Part shown: positions 40-25,080 of the stretch, one piece after another
How positions within the stretch are numbered: position 1 is the first letter of the stretch
Layout: each line of letters starts with the position of its first letter
DNA from: Candidatus Latescibacterota bacterium
GTDB taxonomy: Bacteria > Latescibacterota > UBA2968 > GCA-2709665
Assembly: GCA_965226795.1 (NCBI GenBank)
Contig: CBDDDZ010000005.1
Span: 2,336,001 to 2,400,000 of the forward strand
Reading direction: 5' to 3'
DNA length: 64,000 nucleotides
Notes under the pieces: model-generated
Seen by the model: only the letters and a program-made list of their open reading frames with translations
What the model was told of the DNA's origin: nothing
Database searches by the model: none
Position numbers and translations under genes: made by a program

Positions 40-140
40 GGTTAACGGTTCTTGGCTTTACGACGTGGGCCAGTCCCAAAGGCCCATGTGCCCGCAGGGC
101 CGAGGGGCGGATGCCCCGAAGCGTAAAGCCGGTGTTAGCC
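40..140 (-). repeat. attC-like recombination site 1
   Basis: + strand GGTTAAC(40-46)...GTTAGCC(134-140); inner stem GGCTTTACG(54-62)/CGTAAAGCC(122-130); follows the 3' end of the PhyH gene. Confidence 0.8.
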
Positions 141-219
141 GTCGTTATTAATTCGTATCCGTTCATTGTCGGGGCCTTATGTATCAAAATGTAGCCGCTA
201 ACTCATTCAGACAGACTTC

Positions 220-1140
220 TCATTCACCAAAAAACGGGTACGGCTCGCCGGCTTCCACCAGCCTTTGTACCAGACTCGAGTACTTCAACACCTCCGTCAG
301 CCGGGCGCGCCAATGCGGGGCGTAGAAGCCGACGAATTCCTGGAAGAACGCTCGCGCATCCTCACTGACGCCATCGAAGTATTGCGGCAGCAAAAACCAT
401 GGCTGGTCACTGGCGTAGTTCAGCCCCCGCTGGCGCATCGCGAACTCTGCGGCGGCCCGTTTTTTTACCGAGATCATCAACGAGCGCCTGAGCTTGTCGG
501 TGTGATAGCGGCCCCGATGAATGCACAACTGGGTAAACAGCACCGCGTCACCGGGTTCCTGGTGGAGACGAACGGCGCCAGGCATATCGTTCGAGCGGTT
601 GTGGATCCCATCATCGGCGACGCAGATCGCGTGCTCTTCGGGGGAGTAGTCACGCAGGTGAGACCCCGGCACCACTTCGAGATCGTCGGTAGGGACCAAT
701 GCGATTTGCATCTGCAACCCGGCTCCGGTCTCCGGTCTCCGGGATACGTCTGCTTCTGCACCGATCTTGTCCTTGTGCCAAAATCCGTCCTGGCTTTCTC
801 CGGTCGGATTACAGTAGAGACTGCTCAAGGCGAAGAGGAATTCTTCATCCAAGGCTGCGCTCAGCGATTCGACAACTTGGGGCGACCCCATGGCATTGAG
901 CAGAAAGGCGAGATCGTCGGGGTGATCGCGGTGATATTCCGGGTCGTTCAGGTGCCTCATGTAATTGGCCTGGGGCCCCACCGGTGGATTGTCACAGCGA
1001 GGAGCGCGCCGCCACTGTTCCAGCACTCGCTCACAGATCTCGCGCAGCCGTTTTGTCGTCGCTGCGTCGAACAAACCGCGCACCACGGCGTAAGAGTGGT
1101 GGCGTAGCTGCCCAGGGCAGGGTTCAGTAGCAATACTCAT
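220..1140 (-). CDS. Phytanoyl-CoA dioxygenase (PhyH) family Fe(II)/2OG dioxygenase, cassette-borne
   Basis: WHKD (HxD), LEVVPGSH and PGDAVLF...HRG motifs; RBS GAGGA upstream. Confidence 0.85.
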   Translation of the reverse strand: MSIATEPCPGQLRHHSYAVVRGLFDAATTKRLREICERVLEQWRRAPRCDNPPVGPQANYMRHLNDPEYHRDHPDDLAFLLNAMGSPQVVESLSAALDEEFLFALSSLYCNPTGESQDGFWHKDKIGAEADVSRRPETGAGLQMQIALVPTDDLEVVPGSHLRDYSPEEHAICVADDGIHNRSNDMPGAVRLHQEPGDAVLFTQLCIHRGRYHTDKLRRSLMISVKKRAAAEFAMRQRGLNYASDQPWFLLPQYFDGVSEDARAFFQEFVGFYAPHWRARLTEVLKYSSLVQRLVEAGEPYPFFGE

Positions 1141-1251
1141 TATATCCTCTTGTGTTGCTGTAAGAATTGCGTCGCAATTGGACTGTAAAAGTGCGGACAG
1201 GCTGTCTCGTGCTGTCTAACTACGTATGGAAATCAATGCTCTATTAATTGC

Positions 1252-1335
1252 GGCTAACGTTTTCGCCGTGCCCGAACCGCGAAGCGGTTGCGCGAAGGGC
1301 CGTATGGCCCGTAGCCGGGCACGGACGTGTTATGT
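1252..1335 (-). repeat. attC-like site 2
   Basis: GGCTAAC...GTTATGT; stem CCGTGCCCG/CGGGCACGG; sub-hairpins AACCGC-GAA-GCGGTT and GGGCC-GTAT-GGCCC. Confidence 0.85.
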
Positions 1336-1454
1336 GTTGTGCCAGCCGGGGGGCGGGGGCGGCCTTGCCACGGATGGCAAGGCCGCTTTGTCGCTGAAAC
1401 AGAATTTCCGCTAAATGAATTATTCAGCGGAAATCTTGAAAGAAGAACGAGGGA

Positions 1455-1625
1455 TTATGTCTCCCGTTTCACCGATTCTTCTCTACTTTTCCGCACCAGC
1501 TTCTCAGGATGCTCTTTCTGGCGTCTTATGTAATACGCCACCAATTTCTCTGGGTCGTGATCACATTGCTCCGAAATCCTATGACGCACTTCACGAATCC
1601 TACGAATGGTCGGATCATCTTTCAT
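1455..1625 (-). CDS. 56-aa protein overlapping the PIN toxin stop; probable antitoxin (not in ORF track)
   Basis: Manual translation MKDDPTIRRIREVRHRISEQCDHDPEKLVAYYIRRQKEHPEKLVRKSREESVKRET*; start overlaps 3' end of PIN gene. Confidence 0.65.
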   Translation of the reverse strand: MKDDPTIRRIREVRHRISEQCDHDPEKLVAYYIRRQKEHPEKLVRKSREESVKRET

Positions 1626-2100
1626 CTTCAATATCTCCTAGGAGTTCCAGCGGAGTCACCAACGTGGGCACATATAAGCCAAGAATAGTGTTGACTCGCT
1701 TGATGTGGGCAAACTTATTCGCGTTAGCCAGATGATTGCAATTCCATGTGAGCAAAAATTCACACTTATGATAAGAGGCTGTCGCAAGATGGAGTGCATC
1801 GCCCAGGGGATCATTAGGCATCATCTGGTGTTGGATATATGCTTCTACAATCTCAGCGATTTCTCGTTCAATTGGCAGCAGTGGCAAAGGAGCAACCAGG
1901 GCCAATACTCGGTCCTTGTTAGGATACTCTCCTCCACTGAGTTCATCGATAACCGCTTCACTGGTGAAAATCTCATAACCCTCACGCCGTTCGTCCCACC
2001 ACTGGCGTGTCCAAGTCCGCTTTGCAGCCATCTCGGGTTCTGTACGTGTTTCGTAATAGAAACTGGGAATAGATATCTCGATGTAGACCTTAGGAATCAT
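1615..2100 (-). CDS. PIN-domain (VapC-like) toxin
   Basis: VYIE(T/I)SIPS start, SEAVIDEL, DALHLA, LLTWNCNHLAN PIN motifs. Confidence 0.85.
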   Translation of the reverse strand: MIPKVYIEISIPSFYYETRTEPEMAAKRTWTRQWWDERREGYEIFTSEAVIDELSGGEYPNKDRVLALVAPLPLLPIEREIAEIVEAYIQHQMMPNDPLGDALHLATASYHKCEFLLTWNCNHLANANKFAHIKRVNTILGLYVPTLVTPLELLGDIEDER

Positions 2101-2290
2101 TATATATCATATTGTTTTTAATATGGTAAAGACGGTTCAATTCTGCTGCGATTGGTCACCTATAGACCTGCTATAAATCTACATATCTTAATTAAGTTCT
2201 TCAAGCGAAATTTCCGCTACTGAAGAACGTAGTGAGATTCTCTTGGGCGGCCAGGACGGCCGCCTGCTTTTGGAGGAAGGCTGGCATGGC

Positions 2291-2378
2291 TTATAACGTT
2301 CCCGCGGGCTGCGAACCTGCGCCAGCAGGTTGCTGCGGAGGCCCGAAAGGGCCGGAGCCGCAGCCCGACGTGTTAGCT
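2291..2378 (-). repeat. attC-like site 3
   Basis: TTATAAC...GTTAGCT; stem CGGGCTGCG/CGCAGCCCG; very similar to site 12 (22980-23068). Confidence 0.88.
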
Positions 2379-3008: not shown

Positions 3009-3160
3009 AGATAACGTTCCCGGGCTATACGACGTTCCCCGGTCCGGCGAAGCCGGATTGGCGCGGCGCTTGCGTCTCTCAGCAAGCGACGTGACAAAGG
3101 GGAATGTGCCCGAAGGGCCGGAGGGAGCGAAGCGACCGGAGCGAATAGCCCGTGTTAGCA
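3009..3160 (-). repeat. attC-like site 4 (long, multi-branched)
   Basis: AGATAAC...GTTAGCA; stem CGGGCTAT/ATAGCCCG; sub-hairpins TCCGGC-GAA-GCCGGA and CGCTTGC/GCAAGCG. Confidence 0.85.
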
Positions 3161-4201: not shown

Positions 4202-5578
4202 CTACCTGCTGAACGCGTCGGGCCTGCTGGAGTCCGAGGGCCAGTACCCGTCGCGGCTCGGGTGCCAGCGCTTGCCGCACAGGTCGGAGATCACGCTCCA
4301 TTCGGGGGCGCTCAGATCAGGGTCCGGCTGGAACAGGAAGCGCTGCAGGCCGGCCCGCTCGGAGGCGGTCAGGATGCCGTGCAGGTCGCGGGCGGTCATG
4401 GGCTCGCCCCCGTGCGGACGGCGCCCCGTCGACACCCAGGCGATCACCTTGTTCACATCCCCGATGGCCTCCAGCGCTCGGCGCGTCTCGTTGTACACCA
4501 GCTCCGAGTAGAACTCCTCGGGGAACCCCAGTTCCATGTCCGCCAGGGTCTGCACCCCGGGAAGCTCCAGCCCCAGGAAGGCCTTGACCACGGCGAAGCC
4601 GTCTGCCTCCAACAGGGTCGGGTTCCAGTCCAGGACCTGCTGCACCCAGCGGGCCATGGTGCCGTAGAGGCCGTCATTCCCGCGGTGCCAGAAGTAGTGC
4701 TTGGGGAAGACGTAGTCGAAGTACTCCGCCATCTCGCCAAATTCGTGCCCGGTCAGTGACGAGAAAGCGGCGGTGCGCGGAATGCCCCCCAGCTCCACCT
4801 TCCCTCCCACTCTCTGCATCTGCGCGTGCACGGCGCGCATGAACCCCCGCGCCGCTTCGCGGCGGGCGCGCAGCCAGTACAGGGCATCCTCGTTCAGGTC
4901 GAACAGGTTCAGTGCCCCCAGCATGCCGCCGGACGCGTGGTAGCGCACCAGATCCGGAGTCAGGTTGTGGAAACGCTCGTTCAGGTGCGCCATGCCGCGG
5001 GCGACGCGCTCCACATCGGCGCCGATGGCTTCCAGGCGGTGCCGCATGCGACCGTCCAGTTCCAGTAGGGCCTTACCCCGATGGAAGGCAAGTTCGTAGA
5101 AGGTCTCACCGGGCTGGTCCAGGATGACGCCGTGGGCCTGGGGATAGGCACTGGCCAGGTCGTGCACCCCGGCGGCCACCTCGATGGCCCCGAAAGGGTC
5201 CTCCTCCTCGGCTAGGCCGCTGGTGGTACCCTGGCCCCGCTGGTAGAGCAGCCGGAGCCCGTCTCTGGAGTCGAAGATCATGATGTGCCAGCCCCGGGAG
5301 GCGGCGTTGTCGAGGAGCGCGTGGAGCTGCTTCTCCCTCTCGGGGGTGCGGGCCGTTTCCGGGGGCGGCTTGATGCCGAACGCGGCGTACACCTTTGGGT
5401 CCGCCGCAAACGAGGGGGTGAGGGTGTCCCCCCACAACGGCATGCCGGCCTCGTTCCTGAGCCACATCCGTCCCACCACGATGCCGCCCACCCCTCCCGC
5501 CTCCCACGCGTCGAAGATGCGCGGGTAGTCGTCCAGCCAGTGCTCCAGGGGATTGTGCACGAAGATCCAGGGTACCAT
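4202..5578 (-). CDS. Hypothetical 458-aa protein, paralogue of 16927-18240
   Basis: Long high-GC ORF with RBS GAGGT; shares FPKHYFWHRG and AWVSTGRRPHGG blocks with the 437-aa ORF. Confidence 0.85.
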   Translation of the reverse strand: MVPWIFVHNPLEHWLDDYPRIFDAWEAGGVGGIVVGRMWLRNEAGMPLWGDTLTPSFAADPKVYAAFGIKPPPETARTPEREKQLHALLDNAASRGWHIMIFDSRDGLRLLYQRGQGTTSGLAEEEDPFGAIEVAAGVHDLASAYPQAHGVILDQPGETFYELAFHRGKALLELDGRMRHRLEAIGADVERVARGMAHLNERFHNLTPDLVRYHASGGMLGALNLFDLNEDALYWLRARREAARGFMRAVHAQMQRVGGKVELGGIPRTAAFSSLTGHEFGEMAEYFDYVFPKHYFWHRGNDGLYGTMARWVQQVLDWNPTLLEADGFAVVKAFLGLELPGVQTLADMELGFPEEFYSELVYNETRRALEAIGDVNKVIAWVSTGRRPHGGEPMTARDLHGILTASERAGLQRFLFQPDPDLSAPEWSVISDLCGKRWHPSRDGYWPSDSSRPDAFSR

Positions 5579-5906: not shown

Positions 5907-6040
5907 TGCTAACTACGGTATTACCGAACAGTTACGGTAATGCGTACCTGATCCGAAGATCTGCGAACGTTCGGGAACATTCCACGCTGAAGCTTGTAGC
6001 CCGAACATGTTCAGGAATGCTTCCTATGGTGGCATCGTCT
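5907..6040 (-). other. attI-like site, copy B
   Basis: Near-identical to 23814-23947; similarity stops at the TAAC (GTT core on minus strand). Confidence 0.75.
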
Positions 6041-6295
6041 CTAATCAAAAACTGCCTCCCTTTCTTCCATCAATGCATCCAGCGGGCTCTGGATTTTCGC
6101 GAGATCCCGATTCGTCACCCGAGTATAGATCTGTGTGGTCTTTGGGCTTACGTGCCCGAGCAACACCTGGATATATCGCAGGTCCGTCCCGCGTTCAAGC
6201 AGGTGTGTCGCAAAGGAATGCCGTAGCGTCGGTATCCGCTGGACAATTTTCGCTTTCTCGCAAGCCCAGTCAAACGCGGTCTGTACCGACCTCTC
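6041..6295 (-). pseudogene. Truncated second copy of the tyrosine recombinase C-terminus
   Basis: Nucleotide match to 23948-~24208; translates ...[38 protein letters not shown]...SPLDAL; a 6-nt deletion removes the His of HxxR. Confidence 0.9.
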
Positions 6296-7136: not shown

Positions 7137-7219
7137 AGTCAACGATCTCACGGGCCGTGAACCTGCGAAGCAGGTTGGGGGACGGGCGTAAACCCGAAGG
7201 CGGGGGCACGGTGTTAGAC
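7137..7219 (-). repeat. attC-like site 5 (somewhat degenerate)
   Basis: AGTCAAC...GTTAGAC; AACCTGC-GAA-GCAGGTT sub-hairpin as in sites 3, 10 and 12. Confidence 0.7.
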
Positions 7220-8029: not shown

Positions 8030-8129
8030 GTCTAACCTTCTGGCCACTCGCGCATCCGCGTAGCGGGTTGCCGAATGGCCGACGGAGCGTCGCGACAGCA
8101 GCGCTCCCCGATAGAGCGAAGCATTAGAG
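8030..8129 (-). repeat. attC-like site 6 (degenerate)
   Basis: GTCTAAC left end, CCGC-GTA-GCGG hairpin; right end reads ATTAGAG instead of GTTAGAG. Confidence 0.55.
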
Positions 8130-8526: not shown

Positions 8527-8683
8527 AGCTAACGTTTGGCGTCTGCGAAGGGGACTGGCCCGGGGAAGCCGGATTGGCGCATTGCGACGAGGTCGTGAAG
8601 GGTGATGAAGTAGACGCGATGGCCGGCTTCGAGTGCTTTGAGTGCCAGTCCGATAGCCAGGTCGGGTGCAGCGTGTGTTAGGC
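8527..8683 (-). repeat. attC-like site 7
   Basis: AGCTAAC...GTTAGGC; stop codon TAA of the HAD fragment lies inside the R''-like GCCTAAC. Confidence 0.7.
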
Positions 8684-9200
8684 AGCCCCTGTCCAATCCT
8701 CCCGAATGAACTTCGCAACGCTATCCTCGTTGTTGCTGCCAATCACTTCGGTGGCATGCCTCTTCACTTCATCTGTTGCATTCGAGACGACAATCGCGCG
8801 GTCAGCCATTTGAAGCATACGAATATCGTTGTCACCATCTCCGAACACCACTAGCTCTGATCCTTCCAGACCCCACTCTCGCATCACAATGCGAATAGCC
8901 TGGTCTTTTGTGGCCTTCTCATCGTGCACTGTCAACCAGTACCATCCAGGAGAATACCAATTCTCGAAGCAATGTGTCTCCACCGCACCATTGCACCTTG
9001 TTTTGATTGCGCCTTCCAATTCCTGCAATGGCCCACCTCGCCCGATTATGGTCAGACGGATCACTTTGTCATGGAACGACTGCCTCACGTCGTCCACAAG
9101 GCGCAAACGTCCATCACCTTGATGATCATCCGTTGCGGATCACCTCGAACTGGATCGGATTGACTTCGGTCTTCGCATGCAACTACGGAATCTCCTTTAA
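8678..9200 (-). pseudogene. Cof-like HAD-IIB hydrolase, C-terminal fragment
   Basis: ATKDQAI, VVFGDGDNDIRM, SNA motifs; N-terminal DxD absent, cut off by the Kelch gene. Confidence 0.75.
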
Positions 9201-9211
9201 GAAATGCCCTG

Positions 9212-10339
9212 TCAGGCCGGTGTTCCGCGCCAGAAATCGTTGTACGCCGCCAGCGGCCCGTCCCCGTGCGGCCCGGTAGCCAGGTCCAGCCCCCCGAAGA
9301 GATATACGGACTCGCCCCCCACTGCCATAACGGGGATTCGCCTGACGCCGGGACGTTCGGCGCCATCAGAGGAATCCTCCGCACCGTTGTGTGGATATAG
9401 ACAGTCCCACCGGCCGGCACGAAGATCGTACTGCCACAGATCGTTCAGCTGGGGGTGCTCCCCTTCCCCTCCTGCAAATCCTCCGAACAGATACAGGTAA
9501 TCTCCGATCACAGCGTGTCCCAGCCCGTACCGAGGGGAAGGCCGTGCAACATCATCCGCCCGGTTCTCCTGAATGCAGGTCCAGGCGCCTCCGTCGGGAT
9601 CGTATTCCCACAGATCGTTGTAGAACTCCGGCGCCCGACCCTGACTGTCCCGACCGCCCCACAGGTAGAGCCTGCCGTTCCAGCCGACCAGCACGGGACA
9701 GTATCGTTTCGGCGGCCAACCGTTGCGCCCATTCGACGCAGGCCCCAGGTGCTCCCATTTCCCGGCCGGCGCCTTGTAGGTCCACAGCTGTGCGTGCGTC
9801 ATCGCGCCATGGCCCCCCATCAGATACAGGTAATCACCCAGAACGGCCGCCCCCATCCCGCCCGAACCGGCGGGACGATGCCCATCCGCCGTTATTCCTG
9901 ATGCGCGCCCGTCGTCGGGCTCTAACAGCTCCCACGAGGCTGTCTTCGGATCGTAGGCCCAGAGATCGTTCAGCTTGATCGCCCCCTTGCCGGGGCCCCG
10001 CACCGAGGACCCGCCGAAAAGATAAAGCCTGCCGTTCACGGGCAGCCAGGTCGTGAGCTTCCGGGTACACGGTCTGGTATCGGACGGCCTGAACCCGATG
10101 CGCCCATCGTGGTCTTCCAACCGCGTCCACCGGCCTCGACCCGGGTCGTAGCGCCACAGGTCGTTCAATGAGCCCTGGACGGAAAGATCTCCAGGCCCTT
10201 TCGGCCGGCCGTACATCACTTTTATCCCCCCGAACAGGTAGACGCATCCATTGTAGCTCAACATCCCGCCGAAGGCCGCCCGCCTACAGGGTACATCCTC
10301 GGCTTGCTCCTGGTCCGGATGCAGCAGTTCCCACTTCAT
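9212..10339 (-). CDS. Kelch-repeat beta-propeller protein
   Basis: Repeated LYLFGG...LNDLWxYD units; start MKWELL with RBS GGAGG. Confidence 0.9.
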   Translation of the reverse strand: MKWELLHPDQEQAEDVPCRRAAFGGMLSYNGCVYLFGGIKVMYGRPKGPGDLSVQGSLNDLWRYDPGRGRWTRLEDHDGRIGFRPSDTRPCTRKLTTWLPVNGRLYLFGGSSVRGPGKGAIKLNDLWAYDPKTASWELLEPDDGRASGITADGHRPAGSGGMGAAVLGDYLYLMGGHGAMTHAQLWTYKAPAGKWEHLGPASNGRNGWPPKRYCPVLVGWNGRLYLWGGRDSQGRAPEFYNDLWEYDPDGGAWTCIQENRADDVARPSPRYGLGHAVIGDYLYLFGGFAGGEGEHPQLNDLWQYDLRAGRWDCLYPHNGAEDSSDGAERPGVRRIPVMAVGGESVYLFGGLDLATGPHGDGPLAAYNDFWRGTPA

Positions 10340-10460
10340 AGTGGACCTCCGTACGGCCTGACTTGTGATTCTGCGGAGAAAGTTCGGCATATTCCATTCG
10401 TAGCCGAAAAAATCGATGCAGTTTATTCGCCGTGGATGATTGTTGAACCCCCAAATTACT

Positions 10461-11905
10461 TCAGGACGCATAAAGAGCAAATAGCTTGGCGCGGTCAAGG
10501 TACACTTTGACCTTGACCCCCCCGCGTGCCTGTGAGACCATCTTCTCTTCGAGCCCACCCTCTTTGTCCCCGACTGCGCCTGCCGGATCGCTTTTCCATT
10601 GTACCCGGTATTCTGTTTCATTCGCCGAGAAGAGTATGCAGTCTTCTTTGCCAAAACCCGGCACGACCCGGTCAAACGGATCGACTATCTCCACTCGCAG
10701 CGACCCACCTGTCGCATCGGCGTTGATCCACAATGCATTGGGCTCGATACTCAGCGGGACCGTGGTCACGACCCCCTGCGCCTCCGCCTTCAGACAGACC
10801 AGCCGGTCCTTTTCAATCTTTGCCAGATTGATTCCCCGCCGGGATTCTTCGCCGTAGCGCGTCCCCTCGCCGTGCAATTCGTTTGAGCAGCTGTGATAGA
10901 CCCAGATCTCGTCGCCGCGGACAAAGGGGGCATGAGACGGATAGACATTTCCACTGTCGTGGCTGCCGCGGGGGCCACACTCCAGAATGGGTTCGCGGTT
11001 GCCCGCCCGATGCCAGGTCCGGCCGTTCTTCGAGTAGGTCAACTGAATGTCCATCCGGTTCATCCATTCGGGCATCCAATCTTCGATCCGGTTTCGGGCG
11101 ATCCACCCCTCGTGGAGCGTATGAAACACGGACAGGAAGCCGATACGAAAGTCGCGATACGCCAGCGAACTCATGCCGTAAAACTCCTGGTCCTGCGGGG
11201 GATCGTGCTCATCGGGTGCGACGATGATCTTGCGCGGGGTCCAGTTTTCGAAATCATCGCTCTCGGCCATGCAAATGATGCGCACGTTAGGCCGGCCCCG
11301 CAGATAAACGACGTAGCGGTGAATTTTTGCATCCCAATAAGCGACCAGGTGGGTATCCGAGCCCTGTGGAATGATCGGGTTGAGCCAGCGTTGGGGCACG
11401 TTCCAATGAATCCCGTCGGCAGAATACGCCACACAGACCGGCTGGACAATGCCGGCGAATATCATGTCTCCGCTCTGGAACATAAAGAGCATCTTGTAGC
11501 GCTTGGCTGGGTCTGTTTCGATGGGGTCTTTCATGACTCCTGTCCCGGCCCCCCACCTCAAAAAGGGAAAGACCAGGTTATTCTCTTTCTGCCGCTGTCC
11601 TCGACGAGGTTGAGGACGGGTTTTTCCCAGTGGATCCCCTTGGGACACGGCGTAGGCCCCGTCCGCCACGTCGCCACACTTCGCTCAATCTTCGGCCCAC
11701 GCCGTACCACATCTTGAAGATATCTTCGTCGTCGTCGTACAGGACGTTGACGTAGCCGCCGATCAGCCACTCCTCTTCCCAGGCCCGATCCTTCTCAATC
11801 GCGGCTGTTGCGAAACCTTCTTTGCGGGTACGACCCCTTGCACGATCTGTCGAGATTCTCGATTAACGTATTGTCGAGAATTGAGGCCGCTTTCTCGTCC
11901 GTCAT
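10461..11905 (-). pseudogene. Glycoside-hydrolase-like beta-propeller protein, frameshifted in its 5' part
   Basis: SADGIHW, SDDFENW, SKNGRTW repeats; C-terminal NADATGGSLRVEI; several frame changes at 11540-11900. Confidence 0.65.
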
Positions 11906-12019
11906 TGGTTTCTCCTGGTATTGAATTACTCTTCGCCGTGAACCGGAATTCAATAGTTTGCTCGTTGGAATTTAGTGAGCAACTGATCATTCGATCGTAT
12001 TCTCAGGTCGGTTAATCCA

Positions 12020-12345
12020 CACTTCGTCCGGAACGCATGGCGGACGGATTACCGTTGACATTTCCACTGTCGTTGGATACCGCGTGGGCCAGCACTTCCA
12101 GTCTGGGCTTCACGGTGTGAGCCCATAGTGCCCGATGCCAGGTAACCCCGGCCCGGTGTCGAGTATTGTACCAAGGACTGAAGGCCTGTCCATCTGGTTC
12201 ATCGCATTCTTGCGGCATCCAATCTTCGATCCTGGTATCTGGCGCGATTTACCCCTCGTGAATTGCGCTTTCAGAATACACGGTCATCGGAAACGCCGAT
12301 ACTGAAAGCTCGCCGAAGATCCATCAGCAATGCCGTAAAACGTCC
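12020..12345 (-). pseudogene. Insertion-riddled duplicate of 10925-11190
   Basis: Shared blocks GACATTTCCACTGTCGT, GCCCGATGCCAGGT, GGCATCCAATCTTCGATCC, ATGCCGTAAAAC. Confidence 0.8.
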
Positions 12346-13336: not shown

Positions 13337-13492
13337 CCCTAATCTTCGCGTGAACTCGCAGAGCTTACAATGAGGTCTTCTCTTATTGCGCCAGGCACCA
13401 CAGCTGCTACATAGAAATCCCCAACATACGGTAGAATGTCGAAGATCAATTATCCGTGCTGGGTTGAAGCCGATTCCTCGCTCTTACACAAC

Positions 13493-14368: not shown

Positions 14369-14573
14369 TTGACCGTCACCGGGTAGCCTTTCACTTATTG
14401 TGTACTCATATTGGTCTTCTCGCCGCCAACTCTTGCTTATACGGAAAAATCTGGTCGAAAAAACTCCGTATAGCTCATTCGCTGTCGAACAAATCCATCA
14501 AGCAAGAGAAGTGGTTCGAAGATTTTCCTGGCGGCCGGGACGGCCGCCTGTTTTGACTTTGGCGCGTGCTTTC

Positions 14574-14670
14574 TGTTAACGTTATGCCGGTTTGCGAGGG
14601 CCGAACTGACAAGGCGTTGCCGATGGCCAAGGCGGCGACCGCAGCAGCAGCGCAAACTGTGCTGTTATCT
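14574..14670 (-). repeat. attC-like site 8
   Basis: TGTTAAC...GTTATCT; stem GTTTGCG/CGCAAAC. Confidence 0.72.
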
Positions 14671-15284: not shown

Positions 15285-15935
15285 CTAAGTTTGCATAAGC
15301 TCATGGATCAGCGGTGGGACCTGACGGATATCGGTCAGTTGCCGCAGGGCACCGGTGAAGTCCAGGCCGCGCGTCAGGCCCTGCGGTATGACGATGCAGC
15401 GCAGCCCGGCCGCCAGTGCGGCGCGCAGCCCCCGGTCCGAGTCTTCGATTACGACGCATTCGGCGGCGCTAAGGCCGTTTTGCCGCATAGCCGTGAGGTA
15501 GGGCTCGGGGTCGGGCTTGGAATGCCGGTAGTCTTCTTGCACGAGCGTGAAATCGATGCAGTCCAGCAGGCCGGTGGCGGCGTGGATGATCTCAAAGTGC
15601 TCCCGCCGCGAACTGGTGACGATGCCCATGCGCACCGTGCCGTGGAGTTGGCGCAGCACTTGGCGGGCGCCGTCGATGACGGGTACACCGGCGCGCAAGA
15701 GTTCGGTGTAGCGGGCGTTGCGCCAGATGCGGGCGGGCTCCAGCGCCTGTTCGTCTATGCGGTGTTCGGCGGCGAACCTGGTAAGGCCATCGCTGGCCTT
15801 GAGGAAGAGCTCGATAAAACGGGCTTCGCTCAGGCGGACGCCGAGGGGTTCCAGGGTTTCGCGGCAGGCCTGGAAGTACAGGCCTTCGGTGTCGACCAGG
15901 ACGCCGTCGTTGTCCCAAAGAATGGCTTTCAGCAT
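15285..15935 (-). CDS. HAD-IA family phosphatase
   Basis: WDNDGVLVDTE, SKPDPEPY, IEDSDRG. Confidence 0.92.
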   Translation of the reverse strand: MLKAILWDNDGVLVDTEGLYFQACRETLEPLGVRLSEARFIELFLKASDGLTRFAAEHRIDEQALEPARIWRNARYTELLRAGVPVIDGARQVLRQLHGTVRMGIVTSSRREHFEIIHAATGLLDCIDFTLVQEDYRHSKPDPEPYLTAMRQNGLSAAECVVIEDSDRGLRAALAAGLRCIVIPQGLTRGLDFTGALRQLTDIRQVPPLIHELMQT

Positions 15936-15962: not shown

Positions 15963-15980
15963 GCATAACGGCCTGTTAAC
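15963..15980 (-). repeat. Truncated attC-like half-site at the start of the HAD cassette
   Basis: CGCCGCTTCGCATAACGG resembles the left ends of sites 1 and 12 (GCGCCGCTTTCG..TAAC); no matching hairpin follows. Confidence 0.5.
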
Positions 15981-16050
15981 CGCTGGCAGCCCCATCACGG
16001 CGAAGCCTATCACGGGCAGAGATAAAGCGCGCACCATCAGGCTTCTGATT

Positions 16051-16812
16051 CTACATGACCGGCCTGAATCTGGTTTGAAGAATCCTTTGGGCTGACAACT
16101 CACCAAAAGGCGCACCACAACACCTGACATCCTCCACAACCTTGTGGTAATCGTAACTCAATCGGTGATTTTCCACATGCCATTCCTGCCCATCCCACCA
16201 CACTCTGGCATATCCAGCTCGATGATCCCCGTCAAACGGAAACCCAACTGAATCAATGATGCTATACCGCTGACCGCACGGAACGCCACAGGCCGCATAG
16301 TGCAGGTGTCCCGCCACAATCAGATTGGCCTCCGCATCCCCCAGCAGTGTCCTGGCCTCCTCTTCTGGCGTAACGGTCAGAAGCCTGAACGGATCCTGAT
16401 CAGGTTGAAGAACCAAAAAACCGGCCACATCAGTAGGCGTTGCGTGCACAATGAGAAGATCATCCTCCGGAGACTGCCCTCCCGGTGGCGTTATCCTGTA
16501 CTCAAAGGGCAGACCCTTCAGATAGCTCAAGCCATCTGTTCCCAGCTTCTCTCTCACCCAGTCCAGTCTTTCCCCGGAATGCTGTTCATCAAAGACCAAC
16601 AGGTCTGCGTTCCCGTAAATCGTGGGAGCGCCCAGATTTCGTATCGCGTCAAGACTCTCGACCGGGCGGGGTCCGTTCAGCACCAGGTCGCCGGCGACCA
16701 CCAGACGATCATAGGGTTGGCTTTGCAGATCCTCAAGAACAGCGTTGAGTGCAGCGACGTTGCCGTGAATATCTGCAATTACCGCAACTGAGTATGACGG
16801 GGAATCATTCAT
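16051..16812 (-). CDS. Metallophosphoesterase (YfcE/calcineurin-like)
   Basis: ADIHGN, AGDLV, GNAD, VHAT, GHLH. Confidence 0.9.
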   Translation of the reverse strand: MNDSPSYSVAVIADIHGNVAALNAVLEDLQSQPYDRLVVAGDLVLNGPRPVESLDAIRNLGAPTIYGNADLLVFDEQHSGERLDWVREKLGTDGLSYLKGLPFEYRITPPGGQSPEDDLLIVHATPTDVAGFLVLQPDQDPFRLLTVTPEEEARTLLGDAEANLIVAGHLHYAACGVPCGQRYSIIDSVGFPFDGDHRAGYARVWWDGQEWHVENHRLSYDYHKVVEDVRCCGAPFGELSAQRILQTRFRPVM

Positions 16813-16926: not shown

Positions 16927-18240
16927 TCATATTCGGCCCCCTTCGGGTACCTCGCGCCCGCCGTCCCAGACGCCTGGCTTGTCGGTCCCCGTCGGCCAGT
17001 ACCCGTCGGCGTCTTCATCCCATTGGTTTCCGCACAGCGACGAGATGATGGTCCATTCCGCCGCCCCGAAATCCGGCTCGGGATGGTATAGGAAGCGCTT
17101 CAACCCCGCCTCCTGCGAAGCAGTCAGGATGCCGTAGAGATCGCGCGCCTGCATCGGGTCGCCGCCGTGGGGGCGGCGCCCCGTGGACACCCAGGCTATC
17201 ACCTTGTCGGGATCACCTATGGCCGCCAGGGCCCGCCGAGTCTCGTTGTAGACCACCTTGGAGAAGAATTCGTCGGGGAAACCCATCTCCATGTCCATAA
17301 GCGAGTTGATGCCAGGCAGCTCGATGCCCAACAGCGCCTTCACTACGGCGAAACACTCCGCCTCGCTCAGGGACGGATTCCACTTTCGCAATCGTCTTAC
17401 CCAGCGGGATATGGTTCCGTACATGCCGTCCATGCCGCGGTGCCAAAAATAGTGTTTCGGAAAGATATAGTCGAAATACTCCGCCATCTGACAGTAATTC
17501 TGTCCGGTGAGCGATGACCACGTCACGGCCCGCGGGATACCGCCCAACTCCACCTTGCGATCGACGGCGTCGACCTGTTGCCGCATGTACTGCCAGTCGA
17601 AGCGAGAGCGCTCCTGACGCTTGCGCAGCCAGTAGAGCACGTCCTCGTTGACGTCGAACAGGAGCATTGCCCCCAGCATCCCCCCGTCGGCGTGGTACCG
17701 CACCATTTCCGGTGTCAGATTGTGCAAACGCTCCCGAAAGTGGGTGATGCCGCGTTGTATTCGATCAATCTCGGCGCCGACCTGGGCGAAGCGGCCCTCC
17801 TCACCCGGACGGATCTCCAGGAGTTCGCCCCCGTGGTGGAAGGCAAGCTCGTAGTGGTTTTCGCCCGGACCGTCGACAATGACGCCGTGCACCTGCGGAA
17901 AGGCGTTCATTAGGTCCTGCACGTGGGCGGTCGGGCCGCCTCCGGCGAAAATCAGTAGTCGCCAGCCCCGCTCCGCGGCGTTGTCCAGCATTGCGTGCAG
18001 CTTCTTCTCTTTTGAGAGGTCGCGCGGACGCTGCTCCGGGACTTCCGCCCCCAGGGCCTCGTACACCTTCGGGTCGGGAGCCCACGCCGGAATGGTGGTG
18101 CCATCCTCCTGGAGGAATGCCATGCGGCCGACGGCCAGACCGCGCACGCCACCATCCGCCCAGGCGTCGAACCGCTCCTCGAACCCGTCGAGCCAGTGTT
18201 CGAACGGGCTGTCACTGCAGGTGAATACCCAGAGTTTCAT
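16927..18240 (-). CDS. Hypothetical 437-aa protein, paralogue of 4202-5578
   Basis: RBS GGAGG; starts 34 bp after attC-like site 9; conserved blocks shared with the paralogue. Confidence 0.85.
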   Translation of the reverse strand: MKLWVFTCSDSPFEHWLDGFEERFDAWADGGVRGLAVGRMAFLQEDGTTIPAWAPDPKVYEALGAEVPEQRPRDLSKEKKLHAMLDNAAERGWRLLIFAGGGPTAHVQDLMNAFPQVHGVIVDGPGENHYELAFHHGGELLEIRPGEEGRFAQVGAEIDRIQRGITHFRERLHNLTPEMVRYHADGGMLGAMLLFDVNEDVLYWLRKRQERSRFDWQYMRQQVDAVDRKVELGGIPRAVTWSSLTGQNYCQMAEYFDYIFPKHYFWHRGMDGMYGTISRWVRRLRKWNPSLSEAECFAVVKALLGIELPGINSLMDMEMGFPDEFFSKVVYNETRRALAAIGDPDKVIAWVSTGRRPHGGDPMQARDLYGILTASQEAGLKRFLYHPEPDFGAAEWTIISSLCGNQWDEDADGYWPTGTDKPGVWDGGREVPEGGRI

Positions 18241-18273: not shown

Positions 18274-18377
18274 CGTTAACGGCCTCGCGATACCCGACGT
18301 TGCCGGAGCGTAGCGGAGGTAATGTGCCCGGAGGGCCGAATGACCGAAGGGAGTGTAGCGGGCATCGCGTGTTAAGC
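18274..18377 (-). repeat. attC-like site 9
   Basis: CGTTAAC...GTTAAGC; stem CGCGATACCCG/CGGGCATCGCG. Confidence 0.85.
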
Positions 18378-18512: not shown

Positions 18513-18947
18513 CTATGTTGATATATTCGATACGCAGTCGAAACCAACGGATCGACACTGAATCTGAATTGTACCTTCCAACAGAATCTCCCTGTGCTCG
18601 TCCTTCCTCTCGTTCTGCCAGTATCGTCGCGCCCGCTCGAACATCGATTGAAGGGTTTCGAATTCTTCGAAGTAACTTATCAGGTTCATATCAGCAGCGA
18701 ACGCGCGCGAGCATTCAAGAATCTCGATATCATACAGTTCGCACGCTTCCCTATGGGAGTCGAATCGTCTGGCAGCACTCGCTTCTGGCCAGAGAAACAG
18801 GCAATCAAACCGACTTGGCCTATGGGGAAATTCCCGTAGACGAACAGTCTCCCACGCGAGTTCCATCATGACACGACCTGTCTCGGCGGCATTTGGAACC
18901 GTTACCGCGAGAGAGTCCGCTTGGACTTCGATCAGGATCTGACGCAT
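18513..18947 (-). CDS. Hypothetical protein, DUF2441-like, 5' end probably disrupted
   Basis: ELAWETVRLREFPHRPSRFDCLFL and ARRYW...EILLEG pattern. Confidence 0.5.
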   Translation of the reverse strand: MRQILIEVQADSLAVTVPNAAETGRVMMELAWETVRLREFPHRPSRFDCLFLWPEASAARRFDSHREACELYDIEILECSRAFAADMNLISYFEEFETLQSMFERARRYWQNERKDEHREILLEGTIQIQCRSVGFDCVSNIST

Positions 18948-19094
18948 TAAATGGGTCTGGAAGTCTCCAGGTCTTACAACGGCTCCAGAGCGAAGGCCAG
19001 ACTTCGCCGACCAAAGCAGGTGAGTTCCTGGACCAATATGTTGTAGAGCCCGTGCTCGCTGGCTCGGCGTCCATCCAGAACCCCGTCGAAATTC

Positions 19095-19345
19095 TCACTC
19101 ACAGAACTGAAATGCGTAGAGCTTCGCGTCGCGCATGATGAAGCGTATCCTGACCGGTTGGCCGGCGAGTTGGCGAAGGTCGCCAGCGGGCCACGAAACG
19201 GGCAGCCTGACGGAATTGCCGACGTGCCATATTGAATCTGCGCCACTATACCCCTCAAGCGGACTTCCGTCTTCGGCGAGTAGTTCAACGCGCACGCTGC
19301 CTCCGGCGGCTGTGTCGACATTGAGTTCGAGGCGCGATCCGTAAT
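19095..19345 (-). pseudogene. C-terminal fragment of a GH-like protein related to 10461-11905
   Basis: LELNVDTAAGGSVRVELL...IRFIMRDAKLYAFQF resembles LWINADATGGSLRVEI...KVYLDRAKLFALY. Confidence 0.6.
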
Positions 19346-20442
19346 TCGCCGGTGTTGGCGAATCGGCTGTGGTACTGGCACAGCACTCGGTCCGGTCGAT
19401 CCGCCCGTTTGCCGGCTAGTTCGGGCATCAGCGACACGCCGCCCAGGTCCTCCGGCGTATCGAGTTCGGCCATGTCCATAAACGTCGGATAAAGGTCTAC
19501 CAGGGACACCAGCGCATCGACCTCGTGCCCCGCGCGTACATCCGGGCCGGCGACGATCAGCGGCACGCGAGCGGACGCCTCGTACATCGCGTTTTTCAGA
19601 TGTTGGCGATGTTCCATATTCATCTCGCCGTGATCGCTGGCGAACAGTACATAGGTGCTGTCCATCAGCCCGAGCCGATCGACCGTGGCCATCACCTCAC
19701 CTACCATTTCGTCGACTTCCGTCACCATCGCGAAATACGTGCGCCGCACCGCGCGAATTTCGTCTTCGGTGAACGGATCGGCGCAACCCTTGGTCGCGCA
19801 CATGTAGTCCACCACGGGATGCAGATGGGCCTCATACGGTGGAATGGTCACTGCGTCGGGGTCAATTCTGTCGAGATAGTATTGCGAGGAGACGAAAGCG
19901 GGGTGCGGACAATCCAAACTGCAGTGCAGGATGAAGGGCCGGTCGCCCGCCTGGCGCGTCTCCAGGTAGGCGATGGTGTCCTCGACCTTAGCCCAGTCGC
20001 GCTGGTGTACGCGACGCTCATCCGTTGCGACGTGCTTCAGGCCCGGAAGCGGTCCGGTGCTGCGCGATAGCCGGATGTTGGCCGCGCGGGTCCAGGACGA
20101 TATTCGATTGTGCAGTGAATGGCGGCCTGACAGGTAATCCGTCTTGCCGTAGGCCTGGTGGATATAGCCCGCGTCCTCCAGGTCGGAGACATAGGTTCGC
20201 TCGTCCGGCTCGAGCCCCTTATAATTGTTCCATCCTTCGATGACGTGGGTGTGTTTGCCGCTCCAGCGACTGGAGCGCGACGGGCAACACTGGGGAGAGC
20301 TGCAATAGGTGTTGCGGAACAGAGCGCCGCGCTCCGCCAGATGGTCCAGGTGCGGCGTCTTCACCGCCGGATGGCCGACGCACCCCATCGCGCGCCCGTC
20401 CATGCTGTCGCATTCGATGAACAGGATGTTCCGCTTGCTCAT
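19285..20442 (-). pseudogene. Sulfatase (choline-sulfatase/ARSK-like), C-terminally truncated and fused
   Basis: NILFIECD, CCPSRS (CxPxR), SDHGE, RVPLIV; ends abruptly in an unrelated fragment. Confidence 0.8.
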
Positions 20443-21085: not shown

Positions 21086-21176
21086 ATCTAACGTTTTCAC
21101 GGTTTACGAACCTGCGTAGCAGGTTGCCAAAGGCCAAGCCGCCGTAGGCGGCGAAGCGTAAACCGCTGTGTTAGAT
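21086..21176 (-). repeat. attC-like site 10
   Basis: TTCATCTAAC...GTTAGATGAA perfectly complementary; stem CGGTTTACG/CGTAAACCG; two GTA-loop hairpins. Confidence 0.9.
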
Positions 21177-21273: not shown

Positions 21274-21741
21274 TTACTCAGGCCGCAAGTTCACTCTGTA
21301 CCGACACGTCGGCCCGAATTCTCCTGGCTCCCGTTCGGTTTCGATGGTGTCGACATACTCTGCGCCGATCAACTCACATGTTCTCCTGGATGCGAGATTA
21401 TCGGATCGGGAAGTGATTAACACCGAGTTGATCCCATGGCGCAGGGCAAGGGGAAACAGCAGGCGACAGCTGCGGGCAGCGTATCTGTTCCCGCGATATT
21501 CGTCGTCCACGTCGTGGCTCAGATTTCCTCCATACTGCTCGAGCCTTTCCGTGCACCGCGTTCTGAGGCGGATACTGCCGATCTTCACGTCGCTGCCAAT
21601 AAGCCGCATCTCGAAACGGTACTCCGGCACCCGTCCCGTGTCAGGATCAGATGGAAGCGTCTCGGTGAGGACGAGCTCAAGGTCTCCGTCGACCAAGTGT
21701 CCTGGATCGTGGAATTCACACTCGGAATTCTTTCGGGTCAT
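21274..21741 (-). CDS. GNAT family acetyltransferase
   Basis: IGSIRLR, GGNLSH, EYRGNRYA, DNLASRRTCE. Confidence 0.85.
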   Translation of the reverse strand: MTRKNSECEFHDPGHLVDGDLELVLTETLPSDPDTGRVPEYRFEMRLIGSDVKIGSIRLRTRCTERLEQYGGNLSHDVDDEYRGNRYAARSCRLLFPLALRHGINSVLITSRSDNLASRRTCELIGAEYVDTIETEREPGEFGPTCRYRVNLRPE

Positions 21742-21845: not shown

Positions 21846-21989
21846 ATCTAACGGTCAAGCACCCACGAACCTGCCCAGCTGGCACGGCGCTTGCCCCTCA
21901 CGATTCTCATCAAGCAAGCGCCCGTGACAGCGCCAGGCAGGTTCCGCGAAGGGGCGCAAGCCCCGAAGCCGGGGGTGCCGTTGTTAGCC
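21846..21989 (-). repeat. attC-like site 11
   Basis: ATCTAAC...GTTAGCC; GAACCTGCC/GGCAGGTTC, GGCGCTTGC/GCAAGCGCC, GGGGC-GCAA-GCCCC. Confidence 0.85.
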
Positions 21990-22079: not shown

Positions 22080-22883
22080 TCAATTGAGAAAGCTGATAAT
22101 CTCCACAGCTGATACGGAGACTACTCCGTGGTCATTGGTGACGTCACAAAATAGCATCTCCTGCTCGTTCAAAGAGGCCCTTTGGATAATTCGCCTGGCG
22201 GTGTCACAAACGACGGAACCGCCAAGAACACGGCCTTCAGGTATTGGGGTGACCTGGGAAACATAGTTGGACTGGATGACCGGCACATTGAACAATCCTG
22301 TAATCGCTTTCGCCCCCTCTCCGCACCCGTCTCGGGTCATCTCGCCATCCTGGTTCCTTTTGCTCGTCGCGACACTTGGCCACAGAATCACGTCGCTGTC
22401 CTCTAATCCTCGGCCTACCACGTGATCCAGAAAACTCGATTCGGCGCAGAAGACAGAGCCAAAAAGAATACCGTGGATGTCTACAGGAGACCGCTCCTCC
22501 GACTCTACAAAACCCCATAGTTTCTTCCAAGCCTCGATCAAGAATGTCCTGGAGCCAGCAAGTACCGGTCCTTCCCCCGGCTGCAGTAGCAACAGCGCAT
22601 TGAGGAATCCTCTCTTCGAGAGAAAGGGCGAGCCAACCAGTGTGTAAACTTCAATTTCTTGGGTAACCATGCTCAGCTCTTCCAAGCTCGTCTCGATTTG
22701 GCCGTACCAATCAGGCTCTTTGAAGAATTCGTGTAAGTGTTGATCATACCCGGTCAGCATCATCTCTGGGAAAACTATCAGCTCAGCCTCATGGGATGCC
22801 GCCCTTTGCATCCACGCTTCAACAGTCGCGGTATTTTCTTCAACTGTTGCCGACATTGCGGGTTGCATTGAACAGACTCTCAT
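22080..22883 (-). CDS. Carbon-nitrogen hydrolase (nitrilase superfamily)
   Basis: LIVFPEMMLTGY, FCAE, GGSVV; start MRVCSMQ. Confidence 0.85.
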   Translation of the reverse strand: MRVCSMQPAMSATVEENTATVEAWMQRAASHEAELIVFPEMMLTGYDQHLHEFFKEPDWYGQIETSLEELSMVTQEIEVYTLVGSPFLSKRGFLNALLLLQPGEGPVLAGSRTFLIEAWKKLWGFVESEERSPVDIHGILFGSVFCAESSFLDHVVGRGLEDSDVILWPSVATSKRNQDGEMTRDGCGEGAKAITGLFNVPVIQSNYVSQVTPIPEGRVLGGSVVCDTARRIIQRASLNEQEMLFCDVTNDHGVVSVSAVEIISFLN

Positions 22884-22979
22884 TTGATTTCTGGAAAAGT
22901 AGGGCTGAGGGGTGTCATGGTCTTGCTTTTGTGCTCCGTAACCTGGGTTGGGAGGGGTTCCGTATTCTGCGCCGCTTTC

Positions 22980-23068
22980 GCCTAACGTTCTCGCGGGCTG
23001 CGAACCTGGCGAAGCCAGGTTGCTGCGGAGGCGCGTATGCGCCGAAGCCGCAGCCCGTCGTGTTACAC
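22980..23068 (-). repeat. attC-like site 12 (closes the first cassette)
   Basis: GCCTAAC...GTTACAC; stem CGGGCTGCG/CGCAGCCCG; CCTGGC-GAA-GCCAGG. Confidence 0.9.
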
Positions 23069-23226
23069 GCTTGCGGCGCGCCCCTTCCACGGCGACGCCC
23101 GCAACGGGCTGTATTAAGTGCACACCATAAACGATGTTTTCTGGTTTTTCGTCCTGTTTCTCAGGTCAATCGGAGGCCCATCAATAGCACCAAGAAAACA
23201 CATATCTCCCGAGTTAACTTCGCCCA

Positions 23227-23721
23227 TTAAAGGGGATTCGCCTTTATGAGTTGGAAGAGGTCGCCTTTCCTGGGGCGTTCGGATGTCAAAATCTCCATCA
23301 ATCTTGCCAGGACGTCAGCCCGGTCGAAACGCTTGAATTCTGGGTACAGCCCGATACGCCAATGGAGATAACCTTCAAGCTGTTTCGGATCTGTGAAAAT
23401 CTGTTTGGCCGCCAGAAACTCTGCTTGTAAGGCACGCCGATGTGCATAGGCATGTGAGCGTGAGGCCAACTTGTGTTGAATTTCCACATGCTCGTGTAGA
23501 GCAAACAAACGCGCATACTGCTCGTTCAATTCGATTAGGTCTTCTGGGATGTAAATCGTCCCTGCTTCGTCGTAGAAAGCCAGATCGGGTGTATCGGCTT
23601 CACACCGAAACACCGCATAAGAGATGGGCGTGTCAGCTACGACTGCCTGCTCGGTGCGGATGACTGACTGCTCAATAGCATCGAACAACTCAGTGGCTTC
23701 CGGGTGTGGCAATCGGAGCAT
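23227..23721 (-). CDS. Hypothetical protein in the first cassette, HExxE motif
   Basis: ORF fills the cassette; TIYIPEDL...ALHEHVE; alternative start 23799. Confidence 0.65.
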   Translation of the reverse strand: MLRLPHPEATELFDAIEQSVIRTEQAVVADTPISYAVFRCEADTPDLAFYDEAGTIYIPEDLIELNEQYARLFALHEHVEIQHKLASRSHAYAHRRALQAEFLAAKQIFTDPKQLEGYLHWRIGLYPEFKRFDRADVLARLMEILTSERPRKGDLFQLIKANPL

Positions 23722-23813
23722 AGGTATGGCTCTCGGGTGGGGTGTGTTCAGGGTTTTTGCTTTTTGTGCACGATCTGCAGGGTGGGGTGGTTGGGCCATC
23801 CTGCGCCGCTTGC

Positions 23814-23947
23814 GTGTAACTATGGTATTACCGAACCGTTACGGTAATGCGGGCCAGATCGGAGAATTCCCGAACGTTCGGGAACATTCCACGCTGAAGC
23901 TTGTAGCCCAAACATGTTCAGGAATGCTTCCTATGGTGGCATCGTCT
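23814..23947 (-). other. attI-like primary recombination site, copy A
   Basis: GTTACAC core on minus strand; conserved with 5907-6040; contains ATTACCG/CGGTAAT IR and 18-bp palindrome TTCCCGAACGTTCGGGAA (23867-23884). Confidence 0.8.
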
Positions 23948-25080
23948 CTAACCAAAAACTGCCCCCCTTTCTTCCATCAATGCATCCGGCGGGCTCTGGA
24001 TTTTCGCGAGATCCCGATTCGTCACCCGAGTATAGATCTGTGTGGTTTTTGGGCTTGCATGCCCCAGCAACACCTGGATATATCGCAGGTCGGTCCCGCG
24101 TTCAAGCAGGTGTGTCGCAAAGGAATGCCGTAGCGTATGTATCGATATCCGCTTGTTAATATTGGCTTTCTTGCAAGCCCGGTCAAATGCTTTCTGAACT
24201 GATCGCTCGGTCAAATGCCGTCCCGGCCTTGCGCCCGGGAACAACCATGTTTCGGGTGGATATTGGCGCCTGTAGTCTTGAACCGCCTTCTGTGCGACCG
24301 CGGAGAGCATTGTGTAGCGATCCTTCCGGTGCTTGCCCTGACGAACATGAACCAGCTTTCGGTCCAGGTCGATATCTTCGACCTTTAGCCGGACCGCTTC
24401 ACCCAATCGGAGGCCTCCGGAATAGGTCAACAGGATGATCGCCCGATGCTTCAGGTTTTCTACCGCATCCAGTAACCGAAGCACTTCGGGCCGGCTCAAC
24501 ACAGTGGGCAATTTGTGCTCTTTTTTCGGACGGGGCAGGTTTTCAAGCGGATGCTGATCTTTTAACACACGGAGAAACAGGAATTTCAGTGCGCTCACGC
24601 ACTGATTGACGTAACTGTGCGAGGCTCCCGTTTCAAGGAGGTGATACACGTAATATCGGACCTCCATCTCCCCAAAAGATCGAGGTGCCTTGCCGCAATA
24701 ATTGGCAAATCGTCTGACGTGACCAAGGTAAGCTTTTCGCGCTTTTCGCGCGATACCCACCTGAGCCTCAACTCTTTTGCCATTTCTTCCAGAAACCCCT
24801 CAGGCTGATGCAGCGGTACTTCCAACCGGGTAATAGACACTGGATAAATAGATCCTGTCTCCGTGGGATCAACCCTGAACAATGTCGTCAGCTTTTCCAG
24901 CACCGCGCTTGTTCGGGGAATGCTCCAGAACCTGACAGCTGCCTCCCATCTTCGACCTGGTATCGTCTTGATTTTCTTGACACCATCCGTCGAATAAGAA
25001 AACCGTACGAAAAGACGGCCGTTCTTACCAGGAAACACGTGAGCTTTGGGTTTGTGCGATTTTGGATGTGGATACTCCAT
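23948..25080 (-). pseudogene. Tyrosine recombinase/integron-like integrase (HARP-like + SAM-like + catalytic domains), frameshift near 24760
   Basis: [34 protein letters not shown] all intact; N-terminal frame MEYPHP...ELRLR with RBS GAGGAG. Confidence 0.9.

Follow-up and report, generated by a model that had tools for sequence, protein, structure and literature searches.

Can an integron-like cassette array be served by a tyrosine recombinase that lacks the insertion found in integron integrases (IntI)? The question is raised by a locus in a Candidatus Latescibacterota genome (G000; assembly GCA_965226795.1, 5.4 Mb in five contigs, 95.9% complete), from which we analyzed a 64,000-nucleotide window, C5:2,336,001-2,400,000, of contig CBDDDZ010000005.1 (C5). 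The minus strand of the window carries a gene for a tyrosine recombinase with an N-terminal HARP domain, followed by an attI-like region and an array of cassettes punctuated by attC-like hairpins. The locus is a real example, decayed but informative, and it is likely to represent a sedentary chromosomal integron-like platform served by a different enzyme, one that combines HARP, SAM-like and tyrosine recombinase domains. An initial annotation had described it as a 'reverse' integron, with the recombinase and cassettes in the same orientation. The co-orientation was confirmed; it is not the novel part, since true IntIs with this arrangement are already known (PMC3607928, PMC4889954, 10.1101/2022.02.06.479319). 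Two features that the annotation did not contain, the HARP domain and a distinct build of the hairpin sites, are central to what follows.

The recombinase and the attI-like region behind it

The recombinase gene starts at an ATG at 25,080 and is disrupted by a frameshift near 24,760. Its 5′ part (24760-25080, minus strand) encodes a HARP-like domain (approximately residues 10-72) and a linker, is out of frame with the rest, and is 84% identical to residues 1-107 of P0001, an intact homologue of 376 residues. The 3′ part (23948-24760, minus strand) encodes SAM-like core-binding and catalytic domains, is 94% identical to P0001, matches PF13495 and PF00589, contains the motif WLFPGARPGRHLTERSVQ, and keeps the R, K, HxxR, H and Y motifs; PF00589 and the R-K-H-R-H-Y set identify it as a tyrosine recombinase. 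An assembly error was considered as the source of the break and is unsupported. A contig from an RNA run of another study (one contig, depth 3.9, and not evidence of transcription) aligns gap-free over 24,270-24,803, and the frameshift is therefore probably real. Since the enzyme is frameshifted in this genome, the array is probably frozen and decaying, no longer run by the local copy. Decay in the array is apparent from lost cores, an insertion at 11,930-13,337 and gene fragments. A second recombinase fragment, limited to the 3′ end, lies inside the array (6044-6295, minus strand); it is 86% identical to residues 291-376 of P0001 and forms a 93% DNA repeat.

As the initial annotation had noticed, the IntI signature is missing from this enzyme. 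About 41 residues are absent at the site of the IntI insertion (I2), a gap seen against both the VchIntIA structure 2a3v and L101, and the recombinase has 62 residues between the GK..R motif and RH where four IntIs have 103. Sequence and fold comparisons both gave VchIntIA 2a3v as the best PDB match, split around the insertion. The integron integrase model TIGR02249 gave a two-piece match of 206 bits with the window fragment and 213 with P0001, below its cut-off of 265. The nearest NCBIfam model for P0001 is archaeal XerA (NF040815), which it just reaches (222.7 versus a cut-off of 220), and the XerC and XerD models scored far below cut-off. A separate Xer-type gene is present in G000 at C5:2.888 Mb. 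Directly downstream of the recombinase lie attI and cassettes, not the transposase gene that marks IS91-type loci.

The N-terminal domain of the recombinase has a HARP fold. Pfam HARP (PF07443) detects it weakly, in 10 of 24 family members at E values up to 0.1. A profile built from the N-termini of 24 members found SMARCAL1 HARP (4o66) as its top PDB match (E 0.0014), and a model of the domain (predicted local distance difference test score, pLDDT, 79) ranked the damage-recognition fold of XPB, SMARCAL1 HARP and the N-terminal domain of T4 UvsW first. In those proteins the domain is fused to a helicase, whereas here it is fused to a recombinase. HARP domains bind forks and junctions. The same profile retrieved 6,217 cluster representatives; among 24 hand-picked from the best 150, with long ones favored, PF00589 is found in 18, in which the domain is repeated in tandem 2-4 times and in some cases exceeds the Pfam HARP cut-off, and two are SNF2+HARP helicases. 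Recombinases with two to four tandem HARP-like domains include P0142, P0144, P0147, P0160 and P0166, among others. An archaeal metagenome-assembled genome also encodes a HARP-bearing family member, on an Undinarchaeales contig (L030) that stops 22 bases later.

Behind the recombinase stop codon (TAG, 23,948-23,950) lies an attI-like region (23814-23947, minus strand) in which two inverted repeats precede a G|TT crossover. The G, at 23,820, is 128 nt beyond the stop, in agreement with the earlier statement that the array begins about 130 bp after it. These approximately 130 bases are conserved in relatives G013, G008 and G003, in the more distant G038, and in a second attI-like region inside the array (5907-6043, minus strand, crossover G at 5,913). 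In each copy homology ends at GTT, and the cassette that comes next is usually not the same one. In two other studies, contigs from runs X3 and X14 lose their match at exactly 23,820, and an X8 contig runs past the second attI copy into a cassette that is first in G013. Thus attI lies beside the recombinase and insertion falls at G|TT, as expected of an integron platform. A promoter scan for the cassette promoter Pc returned a single 9/12 consensus match, at 24,186-24,158, which is chance level, and LexA-type motifs were not found upstream of the window recombinase. In Bacillota loci L126, L127, L128 and L131, CGAAC-N4-GTTCG palindromes lie between recombinase and attI; we take them to resemble the Gram-positive LexA box, and they could serve in cassette regulation or in enzyme binding. 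Orphan attI-like copies that lack a recombinase occur in G000 at C5:2214737-2214873, C5:2285123-2285193 and C2:36276-36423. The first heads four attC-like sites (2,205,820-2,211,759), and the second has sites nearby.

Hairpin sites and their link to the recombinase family

The 12 attC-like hairpins originally proposed for the minus strand agree in number with the 12 sites in which the AAC and GTT cores are both intact. Two degenerate sites without a left core (8030-8127 and 15963-16040) bring the total to 14, located between window positions 40 and 23,068, all on the minus strand and all intergenic. Seven of the 14 have a folding z score below -3, whereas folding is weak in the remaining seven (z -1.8 to +1.4). 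A structural detector reported nine sites in window positions 1-25,100 versus none in the remaining 38,900 bases, and 0 or 1 site in 20 shuffled sequences. A profile was made from 11 sites; as its covariance model gained no base pairs, it acts as a sequence profile. Over 104 kb it gave 28 matches, without exception on the minus strand, with 12 rows inside the window (11 sites) and 16 to its left. The array therefore continues beyond position 40: because these 16 further matches extend about 21 kb to the left, its total extent is about 45 kb with about 30 sites. The profile also recovers sites in relatives and almost none in other phyla. A first genome-wide hairpin scan, which was insensitive, returned nine matches, and an Rfam scan of window positions 1-30,000 returned none.

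If cassettes were circular before they entered the array, the left end of each site is expected to complement the bases that follow the previous G. Across 23 G000 sites the mean match was 3.8 of 6 variable positions, versus 2.4 to the site's own right end, and the total of 88 (random mean 56.7) was not reached once in 10,000 random draws. The exclusion of seven weaker or partial sites and the misassignment of one right end both bias against the result. At the start of the array, the left end of the first site (22980-23068) is complementary to the bases following attI, and the left end of site 3009-3160 matches the second attI at 6/6 variable positions. This pattern indicates that the cassettes existed as circles and entered at G|TT, both at attI and at every hairpin.

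The sites depart from canonical attC, with its 5-6 base spacers and extra base in L''. Family sites have a 3-4 base one-sided bulge beside the crossover core and no canonical L-box extra base. The arms are offset by +3/+4 in 15/23 G000, 21/23 Bacillota and 67/81 Bacteroidia sites; an offset of +1 was found in 8 of the 16 IntI-linked sites, from four loci and including repeated sites, that served as the canonical control. The inner stem is continuous, without a left bulge, in 19/23 G000, 23/23 Bacillota and 76/81 Bacteroidia sites, and continues in 118 of 127 family sites versus 1 of 16 canonical ones; the left bulge fits better in 15/16 controls. Five of 12 G000 sites can instead place a single bulged base nearer the core. 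The outer stem is some 15-18 bases long; in the circular form its position 11 is a fixed mismatch, almost never paired. Pairing at positions 13-18 of the circular form exceeds that in shuffled sequence (Bacillota, 58 vs 27.6; Bacteroidia, 141 vs 88.4; relatives, 47 vs 34.1), and IntI-linked controls show no such extension (12 vs 12.5, from 10 pairs). Of 116 family sites, 93 have the more stable fold on the bottom strand, and G.T wobbles favor that strand by 86 to 37.

Homologues of the window enzyme in Bacteroidota and Bacillota head similar arrays. Loci were grouped from the tree and not from their sites, eligible loci had at least 5 kb downstream, and relatives are not independent. The downstream scan called for by the initial annotation found at least two sites in 16/24 Bacteroidota-clade and 9/14 window-clade loci (25/38 in all), as against 1/16 IS91-type integrase loci and 0/14 Xer-type loci (1/30). 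Upstream, the counts were 2/43 and 0/17 for the two clades. In 22 of 28 loci a GTT located 48-198 nt past the recombinase is matched by the left end of the first site at no fewer than 8 of 11 positions, where shuffled sequences gave a mean of 1.0 and a maximum of 6. P0001 matches were found in 59/121 sampled Bacteroidia genomes and 17/201 sampled Bacillota genomes, counts that include some IS91-type integrases and, for Bacteroidia, the unpublished genome G126. Forty of these places, selected for the sequence flanking them, were fetched.

Which enzyme, and which chemistry

In a 135-row tree and a more careful 42-row tree, the seven sampled IntIs, all from the loci of this study, form a separate clade with 100/100 support. 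The approximately unbiased (AU) test rejects a grouping of the window enzyme with them (p 0.0044), placing it outside the IntI clade in keeping with the initial proposal. It is also separate from the Xer rows, and IS91-associated integrases are its closest relatives. An intI gene elsewhere in the genome might have accounted for the array, and G000, at its 95.9% completeness, holds no IntI above the TIGR02249 cut-off; nor did the I2 regions of four IntIs find anything there below E 0.38. None of 24 genomes from Bacteroidota and Bacillota, picked because they carry such sites and in many cases drafts, had an IntI above cut-off. Both positive controls were recovered in this search. The HARP domain was absent from the IntIs of the set. 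One relative, G017, has HARP-type arrays plus IntIs beside IS91-type integrase and transposase genes (L114, L115, L116, L022 and L024). The claim that a non-IntI recombinase family runs this array is thus supported: the family-wide link, the tree and the IntI search in G000 all favor it. The local copy is frameshifted, and the action of the enzyme on these sites is something we infer.

The sequences show that circular cassettes went in, by way of hairpin sites with a build of their own, at the G|TT of an attI fixed behind the HARP recombinase family. The mechanism that we think probable, judged from these comparisons, has the family enzyme carrying this out from a gene that lies upstream of its own attI and in the same direction. 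The bottom strand would fold and serve as the substrate, the HARP domain would recognize the bulge or junction, a task for which IntI relies on I2 and the extra bases, and the resulting junction would be resolved by replication, as in integrons.

It is quite unlikely, in our estimate, that the arrays are ordinary attC clusters that lack an integron integrase (CALINs), made by a canonical IntI that acts in trans or has been lost, with the HARP recombinase as a neighbor or as the supplier of an attG-like secondary site. Such an origin of CALINs has been proposed by Cury et al. (quoted in PMC8618304), the attI has a canonical-type GTT core and, 5 nt upstream of it, a TA-rich box, G017 has both enzymes, and G000 is only 95.9% complete. 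Yet IntI above cut-off is missing from G000 and from all 24 array-bearing Bacteroidota and Bacillota genomes, the array occupies a fixed place behind the HARP recombinase family only, and the sites differ systematically from IntI-linked sites. IntI contacts the extra bases of attC, which affect activity, and complementing those of the Vibrio cholerae repeat (VCR) cuts IntI1 activity from about 1e-1 to 3.8e-5 (PMC2095811); IntI1 nevertheless recombines some attC sites stripped of extra bases (PMC5027507), so site build alone cannot exclude IntI. A deep-branching IntI lineage that lost its insertion, which would make the locus an ordinary inverted integron, appears very improbable: the separate IntI clade, the AU test on seven sampled IntIs, the IS91-associated nearest relatives and the lack of HARP domains in the IntIs of the set all stand against it. 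This derivation would account for VchIntIA 2a3v being the best PDB match, the true IntI of L100 is likewise co-oriented with its array, and the insertion is said by Smyshlyaev et al. (PMC8138268) to be "not fully conserved" in an integron-like subgroup.

The remaining alternative keeps the family enzyme and changes its chemistry. It would be a Xer-like recombinase that acts on double-stranded or cruciform DNA by two exchanges, with HARP binding accessory inverted repeats of attI and not standing in for I2 on a folded strand; we regard this as unlikely. The long, arm-like inner and outer stems and the proximity to archaeal XerA would fit, as would the inverted repeats that precede attI: its 82 upstream bases fold with z < -2 in 14/24 cases versus 0/24 coding controls, although an intergenic control would be fairer and the window's two attI copies reach only z -1.5 and -1.0. 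These features must be set against arms that change in sequence yet keep their pairing, and against the G.T wobbles that favor the bottom strand. The recombining partners share GTT only, which would be too little homology for a second exchange.

Several observations besides the tolerance of IntI1 weigh against a family of HARP recombinases running these arrays on folded sites. Fewer than two downstream sites were found in 13 of the 38 eligible family loci, the enzyme of this genome is disrupted, and only fragments are left in several relatives. IS91-type integrases fall among the members of the family, which therefore does not form a clean clade. In G016 the tail of an array faces an oppositely oriented, HARP-less homologue, and in G000 orphan attI copies and enzyme-less arrays occur (C5:2214737 and C5:2285123). 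True IntIs are present in one of 33 test genomes, that of G017. The canonical site control is small, at 16 sites from four loci, and single-domain HARP structure scores are weak (Z 5.5; Foldseek E 0.04-0.08).

Array contents, known systems and implications

Cassette genes are mixed and include HAD, NUDIX, methyltransferase, SET, HIT, PIN, PhyH and CN hydrolase proteins along with many unknowns. Their co-oriented cassettes each end in an AAC...GTT hairpin, as in an integron platform. Read from attI along the minus strand, on which all of these features lie, the first site (22980-23068, z -4.6) ends a cassette whose open reading frame (ORF), 23227-23799, has no Pfam match. The second (21846-21989, z -5.1) ends a carbon-nitrogen hydrolase cassette (listed ORF 22080-23123), and the third (21086-21176, z -5.8) a cassette with a weak GNAT match (21274-21741). 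A weak fourth site (18974-19046, z -1.8) follows a sulfatase (19285-20442) and an unknown ORF, and a fifth (18274-18377) follows a DUF2441 gene (18513-18947). At 19342/19343 contigs of three runs have 1,532 additional letters, and cassette-region genes are therefore shortened in this genome. Next come an unknown gene (16927-18240) and a metallophosphoesterase (16051-16812), which precede the degenerate site at 15963-16040, spotted by eye and without a significant fold. Site 14574-14670 follows a HAD hydrolase (15285-15935) and a decayed stretch.

No attC was detected in 8684-14573, which holds a metallo-beta-lactamase (MBL)-fold gene (13493-14368), the decayed insertion, a kelch gene and a HAD fragment. 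Contigs of three runs join 11930 to 13337 and thus lack the insertion of about 1.4 kb, other contigs being heavily gapped; about 300 of its bases resemble window positions 10,944-11,190. The kelch-repeat gene (9212-10400) is duplicated, at 98% identity, just left of the window (C5:2334735-2335923). Site 8527-8683 carries in its loop a foreign insert of about 100 coding-like bases, which has no second copy in the genome and whose translation we take to resemble part of an IS21 helper ATPase. Beyond the degenerate site at 8030-8127, in which the left core is mutated, site 7137-7219 follows a gene ending in HTH_3, one of a pair that we take to be toxin-antitoxin-like. The array then proceeds through site 3009-3160 (z -4.3), site 2291-2378 (z -5.5) after a SET-domain gene (2440-2979), site 1252-1335 (z -3.5) after a PIN-domain gene (1615-2100) and site 40-140 (z -3.3) after a PhyH dioxygenase gene (220-1140).

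Two cassette genes without a Pfam match, 4202-5578 and 16927-18240, are paralogous at about 70% DNA identity; a protein atlas offers only uncharacterised look-alikes for them, GHL10 being a weak lead. For one cassette protein the atlas look-alikes are most frequent in Gemmatimonadota, which is a hint only. Four runs that bear the label sponge metagenome contained just 0.06-0.13 of the sequence words, and no habitat is claimed. Past the last detected site, some 32-33 kb to the left of where the window begins, locus L002 holds an ORF that we take to resemble an aminoglycoside 3-N-acetyltransferase, with IS21-like genes nearby. Upstream of the recombinase, on the plus strand, lies a family B DNA polymerase gene (26409-28535).

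The system shares with canonical integrons its co-oriented single-gene cassettes, AAC...GTT hairpins, G|TT crossover, circular-cassette complementarity, GTT core at attI and more stable bottom strand, and the recombinase is related to IntI, at 35% identity. It differs in an enzyme that has no I2 and has an N-terminal HARP domain, and in sites whose arms are offset by +3/+4, against about +1 in integrons, and which have a longer outer stem and lack the L-box extra base. Its attI has upstream inverted repeats, whereas attI1 is described as palindrome-free (PMC2095811). Inverted-integrase integrons, such as those of Treponema and archaeal ones with attI downstream of intI, likewise have an integrase co-directional with the cassettes; theirs are placed by Cury et al. 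among the IntIs found by the intI_Cterm profile, the archaeal IntIs carry an added domain, and Treponema attC sites keep the protruding G. The IS91-associated tyrosine recombinases, nearest in the tree, have the same short catalytic domain. They differ in having no HARP domain, in the transposase-like gene that follows them (by eye) and in the rarity of arrays, at 1/16 loci. A search of plasmids returned mainly neighbors of the IS91 type. XerA, XerC and XerD also combine SAM-like and catalytic core domains without an insertion; they form separate branches with arrays at 0/14 loci, and the distribution of the HARP recombinase family is patchy.

The pairing of HARP recombinase and array was not found described in the literature searched, which lay largely outside subscription journals and supplements, and 'HARP domain' did not occur in the papers that one of the searches listed. 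One survey deemed I2-less recombinases beside attC sites not to be IntI (PMC4889954), and the main text of Smyshlyaev et al. (PMC8138268) does not contain the word attC. The supplementary trees and alignments of both papers may include family members. In practice an integron integrase is defined by its I2 insertion; the present system works like an integron, fails the tests of IntI membership, and is possibly a second class. With somewhat less assurance than for the locus itself, we lean toward a broader reading of the sequences, in which a second, widespread class of integrons would be built on I2-less HARP recombinases and their own bulge-type hairpins. Bacteroidota and part of the Bacillota, groups in which integrons had been taken to be almost lacking, would have it as their usual cassette system, and recombination of cassettes as folded DNA would either have been solved twice or predate I2.

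If the family does run these arrays, the near lack of integrons that Neron et al. found "intriguing" in clades such as Firmicutes (PMC9024848) would be partly an artefact of detection profiles, and a large pool of mobile cassettes would have gone unannotated. The origin of single-strand hairpin recombination would become testable by swapping I2 and HARP domains, and an orthogonal structure-specific recombinase would be available for engineering.

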